A stretch of DNA of 64,000 nucleotides, from assembly GCF_054482595.1 (NCBI RefSeq), contig NZ_CM137008.1. The stretch is one strand, 5' to 3'. The position numbers and the translations under genes were made by a program. The notes below the pieces were generated by a model. That model was not told where the DNA came from and made no database searches. It was given only the letters and a program-made list of their open reading frames with translations. Below are positions 5,808 to 10,382 of this stretch, piece after piece; the first letter of the stretch is position 1, and each line of letters opens with the position of its first letter.

Positions 5808-8800
5808 ATGAACAGGACCAGTCCCCATTATTGTCGCCGCTCAGTACTTTCCTTATTGATATCTGCCTTGATATATGCCCCGCCCGGGATGGCGGCCTTT
5901 ACTACTAATGTTATTGGTGTGGTAAACGATGAGACTGTAGATGGTGTCCAAAAAGTAGATGAACGAGGTACAACAAATAACACTCATATTATCAACCATG
6001 GCCGGCAGGAGGTCTATGGTGGGATATCTAATAGTAGTATTATTGAAACTGGTGGCGAGCAACTAGTATCAATCCATGCCGATATTAACGGGCAAGCTAA
6101 TAATACAACCATTAATGGAGGCAGACAGTCAATTGAGTACGGAGGAATTTCTACTGGCACGATAATCGAAAGTGGCAATCAATATGTTCATAAAGGTGGT
6201 ACCAGCAATGACACGACAATTAAGGGCGGTACTTCACGCATAGAGGGGGGGACTGCAAATGGAACAATCATTGATGGTGGTAGCCAACAAGTAACAACTC
6301 AGGGGCATGTTGACGGTACAACGATAAATAAGTCTGGCTCTCAGGACGTAGTACAAGGAAGTCTGGCAACGAACACAACCATAAATGGTGGTCGGCAGTA
6401 TATTGAACAGAGCACAGTAGAAACAACCACCATTAAAAATGGCGGTGAGCAAAGAGTATATGAGAGCCGTGCGCTGGACACTACGATTGAAGGCGGAACT
6501 CAGTCTCTGAATAGTAAGTCAACGGCAAAAAATACGCAGATCTATTCTGGTGGTACGCAAATTGTTGATAACACGAGCTCCTCGGATGTTATTGAAGTTT
6601 ATTCCGGCGGCGTGCTTGATGTTAGAGGTGGTACGGCAACTAATATTACGCAGCACGATGGAGCCGCTTTAAAAGTAACGACTTACGATTTGACGGTGAG
6701 CGGTACGAATAGTGAAGGGGCATTCTCCATCCACAATAAAGTGGCTGACAATGTGTTGCTGGAAAACGGAGGCCATTTAGAAGTATCTCATTCTGCAAAC
6801 AAGACGATTATCAAAGATAAAGGAACAATGTCAGTTTTAACCAATGCTAAAGCTGATGCGACCCGAATAGATAATGGCGGGGTTATGGATGTTGCCGGAA
6901 ACGCGACAAATACCATAATTAATGGTGGCACACAGAATATTAATAATTATGGCATAGCCACAGGCACCAATATCAACAGCGGAACGCAAAATATCAAAAG
7001 CGGCGGGAAAGCTGACACAACAATTATATCCTCCGGGAGCCGGCAGGTTGTTGAGAAAGATGGTACGGCAATTGGCAGCAATATTAGCGCCGGAGGCTCG
7101 CTGATTGTCTATACCGGCGGTATTGCACATGGGGTTAACCAGGAGACGGGCAGTGCTTTAGTTGCCAACACGGGTGCAGGGACTGATATCGAAGGATACA
7201 ACAAGCTCTCTCACTTCACTATTACCGGAGGGGAGGCTAATTATGTTGTGCTGGAAAATACCGGCGAACTGACGGTAGTGGCTAAAACCTCGGCGAAAAA
7301 TACTACCATTGATGCTGGCGGTAAGCTGATTGTCCAGAAGGAGGCTAAAACAGATAGCACCAGACTTAATAATGGCGGCGTTCTGGAGGTTCAGGATGGT
7401 GGTGAGGCTAAGCATGTTGAGCAACAATCCGGCGGCGCATTAATTGCTTCCACGACATCCGGAACACTTATCGAAGGAACCAACAGTTATGGTGATGCTT
7501 TCTACATCAGGAATTCAGAAGCTAAAAATGTAGTGCTGGAAAACGCAGGCTCATTAACAGTCGTCACTGGTTCCCGGGCAGTTGACACGATTATTAATGC
7601 CAACGGCAAAATGGATGTTTATGGAAAAGATGTTGGCACTGTACTCAATAGTGCTGGCACCCAAACAATATATGCCAGTGCCACTTCTGATAAAGCAAAT
7701 ATCAAAGGTGGCAAGCAAACGGTATATGGTTTAGCCACTGAAGCAAATATCGAAAGTGGTGAACAAATTGTTGATGGTGGGTCAACAGAGAAAACACACA
7801 TCAATGGTGGCACGCAAACCGTTCAGAATTATGGTAAGGCAATCAATACCGATATCGTCTCTGGCCTACAACAAATTATGGCAAACGGGACAGCGGAAGG
7901 TTCCATTATTAATGGGGGTTCACAGGTAGTTAATGAGGGCGGTCTGGCTGAAAACTCGGTGCTTAATGACGGCGGCACACTCGATGTGCGGGAGAAAGGC
8001 AGCGCAACGGGGATACAGCAGAGTAGCCAGGGCGCTTTGGTTGCAACCACCAGGGCGACGCGGGTCACAGGAACACGCGCGGATGGCGTCGCGTTCAGCA
8101 TCGAGCAGGGTGCGGCGAACAATATCCTGCTGGCAAATGGCGGCGTGTTAACCGTGGAGTCAGACACCTCTTCTGACAAAACACAGGTCAATACGGGCGG
8201 ACGGGAGATCGTCAAAACAAAAGCCACTGCGACAGGCACGACGCTCACCGGCGGTGAACAAATTGTCGAGGGTGTGGCGAATGAGACAACAATTAACGAC
8301 GGCGGAATACAAACAGTTTCAGCTAACGGAGAGGCAATAAAAACAAAGATCAATGAAGGCGGTACGCTGACAGTCAACGATAATGGCAAAGCGACAGATA
8401 TCGTCCAGAACAGCGGTGCCGCTCTCCAGACGAGCACGGCTAACGGTATTGAAATCAGCGGTACTCACCAGTACGGCACTTTTTCCATTTCCGGCAATTT
8501 AGCGACCAATATGTTGCTGGAAAATGGCGGTAATTTATTGGTATTAGCAGGTACCGAAGCTCGCGACTCCACGGTTGGCAAGGGTGGGGCAATGCAAAAC
8601 CTGGGTCAGGACTCCGCCACAAAGGTTAACTCTGGCGGGCAATATACCCTTGGGCGGTCAAAAGATGAGTTTCAGGCTCTGGCCCGGGCAGAAGATCTCC
8701 AGGTCGCTGGCGGGACGGCAATCGTCTACGCAGGTACGCTGGCGGATGCATCGGTCAGTGGCGCGACAGGAAGCCTGTCGTTAATGACGCCACGGGGTAA

Positions 8801-10382
8801 TGTTACGCCAGTTAAACTCGAAGGGGCGGTCCGGATTACCGATAGCGCGACATTAACTATCGGAAATGGCGTCGATACCACGCTTGCCGACCTGACGGCT
8901 GCCAGCCGGGGCAGTGTCTGGCTTAACAGCAATAATTCCTGTGCAGGTACCAGCAACTGCGAATATAGAGTAAACAGTTTGCTACTCAACGACGGTGATG
9001 TTTATTTATCAGCACAAACAGCAGCGCCTGCCACAACTAACGGTATCTACAATACGCTGACAACCAATGAACTTTCCGGTAGCGGTAATTTCTACCTGCA
9101 TACCAACGTTGCTGGCTCCCGGGGCGATCAACTGGTCGTCAACAACAACGCCACTGGTAATTTTAAAATCTTTGTTCAGGATACCGGCGTCAGCCCTCAG
9201 TCTGACGACGCGATGACGCTGGTGAAAACAGGGGGAGGGGATGCTTCGTTTACGCTGGGCAATACCGGCGGTTTCGTTGATCTTGGGACCTATGAGTATG
9301 TCCTGAAAAGTGACGGCAACAGCAACTGGAACCTGACCAATGATGTCAAACCCAACCCGGACCCCAACCCAAATCCAAAGCCAGACCCAAAACCCGATCC
9401 AAAGCCAGACCCAAATCCAAAACCAGACCCGACTCCCGATCCAACGCCGACACCCGTTCCGGAGAAACGCATTACGCCTTCTACCGCAGCCGTACTCAAT
9501 ATGGCAGCAACATTACCGTTGGTATTTGATGCTGAGCTAAACAGTATTCGCGAGCGGTTGAACATAATGAAAGCGAGTCCACACAACAATAATGTCTGGG
9601 GGGCAACGTATAACACCCGTAATAATGTCACCACCGATGCGGGGGCCGGGTTTGAGCAGACGCTGACCGGAATGACAGTGGGGATCGACAGCCGTAATGA
9701 TATTCCTGAGGGGATTGCCACGCTGGGCACTTTTATGGGTTATTCCCATTCACATATCGGTTTTGATCGTGGAGGACATGGCAGTGTGGGCAGTTATTCT
9801 CTGGGCGGCTATGCCAGTTGGGAACATGAAAGTGGTTTCTATCTGGACGGTGTCGTGAAGCTGAACCGTTTTGAAAGTAACGTAGTCGGTAAAATGAGCA
9901 GTGGTGGAGCCGCCAACGGCAGTTATCGCAGCAACGGGCTGGGCGGTCACATTGAAACCGGGATGCGATTTACCGATGGTAACTGGAACCTGACGCCGTA
10001 TGCCTCGTTAACGGGGTTCACCGCTGATAACCCCGAATATCATTTATCCAATGGCATGGAATCGAAATCAGTCGATACCCGCAGTATATATCGTGAACTG
10101 GGCGCAACGCTGAGTTACAACATGCGTCTGGGAAACGGTATGGAAATTGAGCCGTGGCTGAAGGCGGCTGTGCGCAAAGAATTTGTCGATGATAACCGGG
10201 TGAAGGTGAATAATGACGGTAATTTCGTCAATGATTTGTCGGGCAGACGTGGAATATACCAGGCAGGTATTAAAGCCTCATTCAGCAGTACGTTAAGCGG
10301 GCATCTTGGGGTGGGGTATAGCCATGGTGCCGGTGTGGAATCCCCGTGGAACGCGGTAGCTGGTGTGAACTGGTCGTTCTGA
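5808..10382 (+). CDS. ypjA: Autotransporter adhesin (type Va secretion), about 1525 aa; repetitive passenger, Pro-rich linker, C-terminal beta-barrel
   Basis: Signal peptide MNRTSPHYCRRSVLSLLISALIYAPPGMAA; many degenerate ~19-aa repeats (GGxQxV...T.I.GG); PNPDPNPNPKPDPKPDPKPDPNPKPDPTPDP linker; ends in aromatic VNWSF. In-frame ATGs also at 5799 and upstream (ORF track start 5679). Confidence 0.85.
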   Translation: MNRTSPHYCRRSVLSLLISALIYAPPGMAAFTTNVIGVVNDETVDGVQKVDERGTTNNTHIINHGRQEVYGGISNSSIIETGGEQLVSIHADINGQANNTTINGGRQSIEYGGISTGTIIESGNQYVHKGGTSNDTTIKGGTSRIEGGTANGTIIDGGSQQVTTQGHVDGTTINKSGSQDVVQGSLATNTTINGGRQYIEQSTVETTTIKNGGEQRVYESRALDTTIEGGTQSLNSKSTAKNTQIYSGGTQIVDNTSSSDVIEVYSGGVLDVRGGTATNITQHDGAALKVTTYDLTVSGTNSEGAFSIHNKVADNVLLENGGHLEVSHSANKTIIKDKGTMSVLTNAKADATRIDNGGVMDVAGNATNTIINGGTQNINNYGIATGTNINSGTQNIKSGGKADTTIISSGSRQVVEKDGTAIGSNISAGGSLIVYTGGIAHGVNQETGSALVANTGAGTDIEGYNKLSHFTITGGEANYVVLENTGELTVVAKTSAKNTTIDAGGKLIVQKEAKTDSTRLNNGGVLEVQDGGEAKHVEQQSGGALIASTTSGTLIEGTNSYGDAFYIRNSEAKNVVLENAGSLTVVTGSRAVDTIINANGKMDVYGKDVGTVLNSAGTQTIYASATSDKANIKGGKQTVYGLATEANIESGEQIVDGGSTEKTHINGGTQTVQNYGKAINTDIVSGLQQIMANGTAEGSIINGGSQVVNEGGLAENSVLNDGGTLDVREKGSATGIQQSSQGALVATTRATRVTGTRADGVAFSIEQGAANNILLANGGVLTVESDTSSDKTQVNTGGREIVKTKATATGTTLTGGEQIVEGVANETTINDGGIQTVSANGEAIKTKINEGGTLTVNDNGKATDIVQNSGAALQTSTANGIEISGTHQYGTFSISGNLATNMLLENGGNLLVLAGTEARDSTVGKGGAMQNLGQDSATKVNSGGQYTLGRSKDEFQALARAEDLQVAGGTAIVYAGTLADASVSGATGSLSLMTPRGNVTPVKLEGAVRITDSATLTIGNGVDTTLADLTAASRGSVWLNSNNSCAGTSNCEYRVNSLLLNDGDVYLSAQTAAPATTNGIYNTLTTNELSGSGNFYLHTNVAGSRGDQLVVNNNATGNFKIFVQDTGVSPQSDDAMTLVKTGGGDASFTLGNTGGFVDLGTYEYVLKSDGNSNWNLTNDVKPNPDPNPNPKPDPKPDPKPDPNPKPDPTPDPTPTPVPEKRITPSTAAVLNMAATLPLVFDAELNSIRERLNIMKASPHNNNVWGATYNTRNNVTTDAGAGFEQTLTGMTVGIDSRNDIPEGIATLGTFMGYSHSHIGFDRGGHGSVGSYSLGGYASWEHESGFYLDGVVKLNRFESNVVGKMSSGGAANGSYRSNGLGGHIETGMRFTDGNWNLTPYASLTGFTADNPEYHLSNGMESKSVDTRSIYRELGATLSYNMRLGNGMEIEPWLKAAVRKEFVDDNRVKVNNDGNFVNDLSGRRGIYQAGIKASFSSTLSGHLGVGYSHGAGVESPWNAVAGVNWSF

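Follow-up and report, generated by a model that had tools for sequence, protein, structure and literature searches.

The gene at positions 5808..10382 (plus strand) of the stretch of DNA analysed here, 64,000 nt of contig NZ_CM137008.1 from the assembly GCF_054482595.1 and called the window below, is ypjA/ehaD; it very probably encodes a classical type Va autotransporter adhesin of the AIDA-I type in Escherichia coli, with an X-Pro spacer whose tandem units would be gained or lost by slippage in frame. Our results clearly established the identity of the gene, the order of its domains and the existence of length alleles. A sequence-only reading of the window had proposed that repeat number and linker length could vary between strains, and such variation was indeed found: the linker measured 28-48 amino acids (aa) in orthologues and 48-88 aa in a paralogue, and passenger deletions of 54, 199 and 215 aa were present. 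Given these linker alleles and deletions, the architecture of the repeats is not identical in all homologues. The gene is already known and annotated, and length variation is ordinary for a bacterial surface protein; the details added here, namely the orthologue alleles, the (Asn-Pro)18-38 of the paralogue, the losses of passenger blocks and the mosaic structure of the window allele, are useful and not surprising.

The ypjA coding sequence (CDS) in the window is intact. Its open reading frame (ORF), 1524 aa plus the stop codon, runs uninterrupted to 10382 and agrees with a RefSeq CDS, and the ATG at 5808 is the RefSeq start of the identical gene in E. coli XH990. Megablast against 5,426 complete E. 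coli genomes matched positions 5600-10500 to XH990 (NZ_CP019359.1) at 100%, where the product at the same coordinates is named 'adhesin-like autotransporter YpjA/EhaD'; a place covering at least 80% of the query was present in 2,436 of these genomes, mostly at 95-99% identity. The gene order is lhgO, glaH, an alpha-amylase-family gene, tRNA-Ile, a DUF5507 gene, a recombinase fragment and ypjA, followed downstream by a decayed P4-like island, a prophage and ssrA. This is where ypjA lies in K-12, in the variable island bounded by tRNA-Ile (ileY) and ssrA, and the gene shows both the high identity to the reference and the position in the ileY-ssrA island that mark a YpjA/EhaD orthologue. The 'ypjA-like' autotransporter adhesin named by the sequence-only reading was correct, as shown by Pfam, NCBIfam, the XH990 match and the RefSeq annotation.

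The protein begins with a predicted Sec signal peptide of about 29 aa (MNRTSPHYCRRSVLSLLISALIYAPPGMA, 5808..5894), read from the sequence, in which a basic n-region, a hydrophobic core and G-M-A ahead of the likely cleavage site could be recognised, as expected at the N-terminus of a classical autotransporter. The signal peptide of K-12 YpjA is likewise 29 aa long (PMC13101318). The following passenger (5895..8969) is made of degenerate 18-19-aa units, which correspond to AIDA-type beta-helix rungs according to Pfam, NCBIfam, periodicity and homology. Pfam found 12 AIDA stretches and NCBIfam found 11 strand-loop-strand repeats (TIGR04415). When aa 30-1050 were compared with themselves under BLOSUM62, the score peaked at an offset of 18 residues (z = 10.0) and again at 19 (z = 7.3), harmonics followed at 36 and 54, and the top z among 300 shuffles was 4.0; the many degenerate repeats of about 19 aa claimed earlier for the passenger are thereby confirmed. 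The passenger also matched the solved beta-helices of Ag43, the AIDA family and TibA in a sequence comparison with the PDB, and repeats, periodicity and Ag43/TibA homology together give it the imperfect ~19-aa repeat structure typical of AIDA-I-type adhesins. A longer module with the motif xFSIxxxxAxNxLLENGGxL was found in five copies between 6720 and 8542 on the plus strand (6720-6784, 7235-7258, 7497-7561, 8091-8155 and 8478-8542; repeat families of 62-79% DNA identity), and it is a higher-order repeat superimposed on the 18-19-aa units.

The C-terminal part of the passenger is a pertactin-like (autochaperone) domain at aa 1055-1177 (8970..9338; PF03212, E = 2.4e-45), and the match to pertactin 1DAB (residues 1055-1178) stops at query residue 1178, exactly where the linker starts. 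Beyond the linker, AlphaFold2 predicted an alpha-helical segment at aa 1224-1254 (9477..9569; model residues 185-215) ahead of the C-terminal outer-membrane beta-barrel translocator (9594..10379; PF03797, E = 5.1e-45; TIGR01414, E = 4.8e-97), in which Pfam placed the Autotransporter beta-domain at aa 1263-1502. In this autotransporter family, the pre-barrel helix occupies the pore of the barrel. The AlphaFold2 model covered aa 1040-1524 and was built on a 30-sequence alignment (mean predicted local distance difference test score, pLDDT, 83; predicted template modelling score, pTM, 0.77); it was confidently beta up to about aa 1177 and continued with a low-confidence linker, the helix and the barrel. 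The modelled barrel matched the BrkA beta-domain 3QQ2 with a TM(target) of 0.91 in Foldseek, as well as EspP, Hbp, NalP and the AIDA-I transport unit 4MEE, and the C-terminus matched the BrkA and Vag8 translocators in the PDB sequence comparison. The model is thus that of a 12-stranded barrel with a helix immediately ahead of its first strand that joins it to the passenger, the arrangement of a classical type Va autotransporter.

The linker lies between the autochaperone domain and the pore helix plus beta-barrel. It is encoded at 9348..9461 on the plus strand (aa 1181-1218) and has the peptide sequence KPNPDPNPNPKPDPKPDPKPDPNPKPDPTPDPTPTPVP, that is, 38 aa or 19 consecutive X-Pro dipeptides, and this length-polymorphic element consists of imperfect 6/12/42-nt tandem repeats. 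Tandem Repeats Finder reported imperfect arrays with periods of 6, 12, 18 and 42 nt (68-87% matches, best score 129), and a repeat search aligned six copies in register. A Pro-rich linker of near-tandem DNA repeats had been noticed before at this place, and the string quoted for it is contained exactly in the peptide. Residues 1184-1217 (model residues 145-178) had a pLDDT below 50 and were modelled without secondary structure, so that the linker is predicted to behave as an unstructured or extended spacer. An antisense ORF of 146 aa at 9290-9730 (minus strand) carries GSGFGFGSGF repeats, which are the reverse-complement image of the X-Pro tract. Minus-strand ORFs within ypjA such as this one were rejected as genes because they are merely an antisense image of the repeats.

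Linker length in the ypjA orthologues was surveyed in two systematic samples of 60 rows, with queries of 501 nt and 707 nt across the linker, and every departure of an alignment span from the query was a multiple of 6 nt. The 38-aa linker was the most frequent (31 rows in each sample), followed by linkers of 36 aa (18 rows in the first sample and 17 in the second) and 40 aa (8 rows in each), whereas the rarer alleles were seen in one sample only: 44 aa in one row of the first, and 48 aa and 28 aa in one row each of the second. Every one of these lengths was also read in named strains: SCU-172 has 28 aa, 90-3040 and strain 144 have 36 aa, the window and K-12 share 38 aa, O157:H7, O145:H28 and A34 have 40 aa, and O55:H7 has 44 aa in DEC5E and 48 aa in DEC5B. 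The 40-, 44- and 48-aa alleles of three O157:H7/O55:H7 strains differ solely in having 2, 3 or 4 copies of the 12-nt unit AACCCAAATCCC, which is the signature of slipped-strand expansion.

A paralogue of ypjA is located between minE and ymgJ, as in the porcine strain ETEC1701 (L010, 2213-5665; other copies in L007 and L013-L020), and the RefSeq Prokaryotic Genome Annotation Pipeline also names it 'ypjA'. The 82-aa linker of ETEC1701, which came up in one sampled row and contains (Asn-Pro)35, was considered as an allele of the ypjA orthologue and rejected because the minCDE/ymgJ neighbours reveal the paralogue, and the statistics of orthologue and paralogue were kept separate. The paralogue shares its N-terminus, autochaperone domain, helix and barrel with the window ypjA at 83-97% nucleotide identity by segment. 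A search with its linker region gave spans from 731 to 851 nt, and the nine sequences that were read had linkers of 48-88 aa that are nearly pure arrays of 18-38 Asn-Pro units, in which a 12-nt unit (AACCCAAATCCG) repeated 2-8 times and a 6-nt unit (AATCCA) repeated 4-15 times form two sub-arrays that vary independently. Of these nine sequences, seven had no single-nucleotide polymorphism over 623 nt of flank and yet represented six array lengths. Alleles that differ by whole units within conserved flanks, as expected of an in-frame variable-number tandem repeat (VNTR), were therefore found both for AACCCAAATCCC in the orthologues and in the paralogue, and the Asn-Pro array of the latter is a true in-frame VNTR. 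In K-12-like genomes, only a remnant of about 530 nt is left at the minE-ymgJ locus, the pseudogene ycgI.

Replication slippage would gain or lose the 6- and 12-nt units in frame and so generate the length alleles, over 28-48 aa in the orthologues and 48-88 aa in the paralogue, and the protein would never be switched off by this process. Phase switches usually sit in short tandem units within the genes of surface adhesins, and the tract, being of this kind, could be suspected to be a contingency locus with on/off phase variation by frameshift. But the units are 6 and 12 nt, the length differences observed all come in multiples of 6 nt and leave the reading frame intact, and the frameshifts of pseudogene copies are not located within the tract, save in one database fragment. 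With all variants in frame, a phase-variable locus is largely refuted and has only the slightest chance of being correct. Errors of assembly or sequencing in a low-complexity tract are another conceivable source of length differences, since repeats are error-prone, notably in assemblies made from long reads only, and the paralogue copy L019, which is annotated as frameshifted, has an indel of 1 nt beyond the limits of the array. This explanation is highly implausible as well, because the alleles differ cleanly by entire units of 6 or 12 nt, the orthologue tracts (84-144 nt) are well inside read lengths, and lengths agreed wherever one strain or clone had been assembled more than once (THO-008 twice, ETEC6333/6334, ETEC4070/4071, EC556/571/581), an agreement of independent assemblies which argues against an artefact. 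Slippage in frame is the preferred explanation of the alleles.

The passenger changes less often, by in-register loss of blocks of rungs and by recombination between alleles. As aligned to the window protein, the paralogue is without passenger aa 118-332 (215 aa) and 526-724 (199 aa), and the ypjA of O158:H23 has lost 54 aa (aa 770-823). The three deletions join at repeated motifs (TII/TII, NNGG-LEV/NDGG-LDV and GA-AN/GV-AN), so that the register of the beta-helix should be kept. The passenger repeats are just 60-80% alike as DNA according to the repeat search, which is too diverged for simple slippage; rare block deletions and allelic mosaicism better describe the changes in this region. The first ~900 nt of the window ypjA (5808-6700) show 87-92% identity to K-12 and a higher identity, 93-96%, to the O158:H23 allele, and nt 1195-3500 of the gene (compared over window positions 7000-9300) are 98-100% K-12-like. 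The window allele is a recombinant mosaic, in which the distal tip of the adhesin is the most divergent part.

The position of the spacer is hypervariable in the relatives that were compared. The protein search behind this comparison was confined to 8,000 word-sharing candidates and yielded mostly fragments and more distant relatives, and is therefore not a census of alleles; relatives from E. albertii, Citrobacter, Salmonella, Klebsiella, Buttiauxella and Erwinia were compared. The variable site lies between W-x-L-T at the end of the passenger and RITPSTAAVLNMAA at the start of the helix. In E. albertii the spacer is 18, 30 or 32 aa long, a 12-aa unit having been duplicated, and elsewhere the site is filled by unrelated Pro-rich repeats (NPDPKPDP, EPTP, PVEPPVD, TPTPP) that can exceed 50 aa. 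As judged from these alignments, the spacer is an optional, fast-evolving module of this clade.

In the mechanism that we propose from family knowledge, the Sec signal peptide would deliver YpjA to the periplasm, the C-terminal 12-stranded barrel would insert into the outer membrane, and the passenger of about 1150 aa would be exported and fold as a beta-helix with the degenerate 18-19-aa repeats as rungs and the pertactin-like autochaperone domain as its base. After secretion, the X-Pro tract would come to rest immediately beyond the membrane and serve there as a spacer, either flexible or polyproline-like in form, and its length may then affect how far the adhesin projects, by about 0.3 nm per residue if it is polyproline-II-like. 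It is tempting to go further and regard the X-Pro spacer as a fast-evolving, length-tunable stalk, in which slippage in frame sets the projection of the adhesin past lipopolysaccharide, O-antigen or capsule as a graded 'rheostat'. The main ground for such a stalk is that the 18-38 Asn-Pro units of the paralogue vary amid identical flanks; if true, projection would range from about 9 to 27 nm with the spacer extended. No description of this repeat was found in the literature searched. We consider the tunable stalk a speculative possibility, with the odds clearly against it.

Several observations weigh against the main explanation, an autotransporter adhesin whose spacer varies by slippage in frame. 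For most of the sampled rows, linker length was derived from the span of the alignment and not read base by base. The tract of the window itself is interrupted and imperfect (68-87% matches), and 62 of 62 sampled K-12-like rows share its 38-aa length, so that the interrupted tract looks stable and length differs between lineages, not within them; slippage in the window's own allele may be rare. The earlier description of the tract as prone to slippage is therefore borne out by other alleles with purer sub-arrays, but not by the window allele, which is imperfect and of a length class invariant in those 62 rows. YejO-like proteins have no Pro-rich spacer at the equivalent position, which indicates that the spacer is dispensable for secretion in the clade. 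Near-full-length ypjA, found in 2,436 of the 5,426 genomes, is absent from about 55% of them, some copies are truncated, interrupted by an insertion sequence (IS) or frameshifted, and many RefSeq copies are annotated as pseudogenes; frequent pseudogene calls and patchy presence fit weak selection.

A rival explanation is that the length variation is real yet functionally neutral, the spacer being a filler of low constraint whose repeat number drifts, and to this we give about an even chance. It agrees with the 0 to more than 50 residues and unrelated repeat units at the spacer site of relatives, with the frequent loss, truncation or pseudogenisation of ypjA and with the stability of orthologue linker length within lineages. 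On the other hand, every linker tract that was read, 9 from the paralogue and 11 from orthologues, has a length divisible by 3 nt, and a frameshifted tract was seen in one database fragment only (P0114). Tracts that occur only in frame suggest that selection removes out-of-frame variants, although such selection would act on the downstream barrel and not on linker length. Neutrality and the tunable stalk are both live, and we estimate neutrality to be somewhat more likely.

A related explanation is that ypjA is here a silent, decaying island gene and that its repeat variation reflects relaxed constraint. The island around it is decayed: the recombinase is a fragment, the P4-like primase and psu are pseudogenes and the integrase gene contains an internal stop. 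The gene is missing from the same ~55% of complete genomes; K-12 ypjA, moreover, is reportedly not expressed under laboratory conditions, as Roux and colleagues are said to have found in 2005. Against this stand the clean ORF of 1524 codons with every domain intact in the window copy, the 98-100% identity of its central part to K-12, and the phenotypes of ypjA overexpression in the literature (PMC9289746, PMC12547504, PMC3796261). A silent, decaying gene is thus rather unlikely to account for the variation, and an intact YpjA/EhaD adhesin with a spacer that varies in frame remains our reading of this locus.

As for the use of these results, surveys of adhesin presence and absence treat ypjA as a single entity, while the linker, the stalk length and the N-terminal tip differ by lineage. 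RefSeq annotates ypjA as a pseudogene by frameshift, internal stop or truncation in the pathogenic lineages 90-3040, O145:H28, O157:H7 MB9-1, O55:H7 DEC5E and DEC5B, and ypjA is nonetheless scored 'present' in adhesin surveys of Shiga toxin-producing E. coli. The paralogue of the same name and the pseudogene copies, including those of O157:H7 and O55:H7, can mislead studies of adhesin content and association studies. The Asn-Pro array of the paralogue is highly discriminating and could be used for typing or, as a set of spacer lengths that nature has already made, for work on how such length affects autotransporter display. A generic E. coli scheme of multiple-locus VNTR analysis comprises 20 primers and has the loci CVN014-017 with 6-bp units (PMC8143711). 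None of these 20 primers matched the window or the paralogue locus at up to 3 mismatches, and both repeats were rejected as loci of that scheme.

A 39-aa hypothetical ORF is annotated by RefSeq in the leader of ypjA (5624..5743, plus strand), 64 nt upstream of the gene; K-12, SCU-172 and O158:H23 carry the same protein accession ahead of their ypjA, and the minE-ymgJ paralogue has a counterpart upstream as well. It may be either a conserved leader or a spurious call. An Rfam scan of positions 1-13000 of the window matched a tRNA only, with no regulatory RNA in the ypjA leader, and a regulatory RNA there was rejected on that ground. The promoter scan gave 10 sites as compared to 8.4 ± 2.7 in shuffled sequence, and no promoter was called. 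A weak terminator-like hairpin with a T-rich tail was found by a consensus scan at 10431..10453 (plus strand), 49 nt past the stop codon.

The neighbouring DNA contains a number of other elements. Between tRNA-Ile and ypjA, the DUF5507 (YpjCB-family) protein of 484 aa is encoded at 3419-4873 (plus strand), by a gene which is intact in the window and a pseudogene in some strains, e.g. ECamp52. The P4-like island carries likely defence modules at 10693-11574 (minus), 13691-16203 (plus) and 17739-19690 (minus), namely an AbaSI-family restriction endonuclease, an AAA ATPase with an HNH endonuclease, and RloB with an AAA ATPase, and pseudogenes of a P4-type primase, psu and an integrase are interspersed among them. 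The prophage extends from 19881 to about 57000 and has integrase, regulatory, lysis, terminase, HK97-type head and contractile-tail/baseplate genes together with pinE, an invertase gene accompanied by opposed tail-fibre genes. An IS3 element (37365-38527) directly follows its large terminase gene, and the prophage adjoins the transfer-messenger RNA gene ssrA (~58424-58786, minus strand).

Among known systems, the window YpjA has its closest counterparts in YpjA/EhaD of K-12 and O157:H7; that of K-12 has the same locus, domain order and 38-aa linker and 96.6% nucleotide identity over the whole gene; the window protein is 2 aa shorter in the passenger (1524 vs 1526 aa). The YpjA/EhaD allele of O157:H7 has a 40-aa linker as compared to 38 aa in the window. 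AIDA-I, TibA and Ag43 share with YpjA the ~19-aa beta-helix repeat family, the pertactin-like junction and the barrel, and a published phylogeny groups YpjA with them (PMC9289746). The scores against the AIDA-I/Ag43 equivalogs were 268 bits for NF033176 and 352 bits for NF033177, far under the cut-offs of 1200, which indicates that YpjA is a related member and neither AIDA-I nor Ag43 itself. No heptosyltransferase gene of the aah/tibC type, the kind that glycosylates the repeats in this group of adhesins, was found among the annotated features of the 64-kb window. YpjA promotes adhesion and biofilm formation, the sole phenotype reported being on the biofilm side and not autoaggregation (PMC3796261, PMC9289746), and it is described elsewhere as a biofilm-promoting adhesin (PMC12547504); no structural study of YpjA has been published (PMC3796261; PMC9289746).

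The closest analogue of the variable Pro-rich region is the autotransporter adhesin pertactin of Bordetella, with its GGXXP and PQP repeats; isolates vary in the number of these repeats, which serves for typing (PMC12243275). Pertactin differs from YpjA in that its units are PQP/GGXXP and not X-Pro dipeptides, and it belongs to another genus and has another passenger. Its PQP region sits where the homology to YpjA ends. An argument from immune selection exists for pertactin, but none for YpjA. The alternating X-Pro pattern also resembles the (Glu-Pro)n(Lys-Pro)m spacer of TonB; aa 1180-1224 matched NCBIfam TonB at 17 bits (cut-off 315), which reflects composition only, and a Pfam match to procyclin repeats was obtained too. 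A comparable role as a rigid spacer is plausible, with the difference that TonB spans the periplasm whereas the spacer of YpjA would lie outside the outer membrane.

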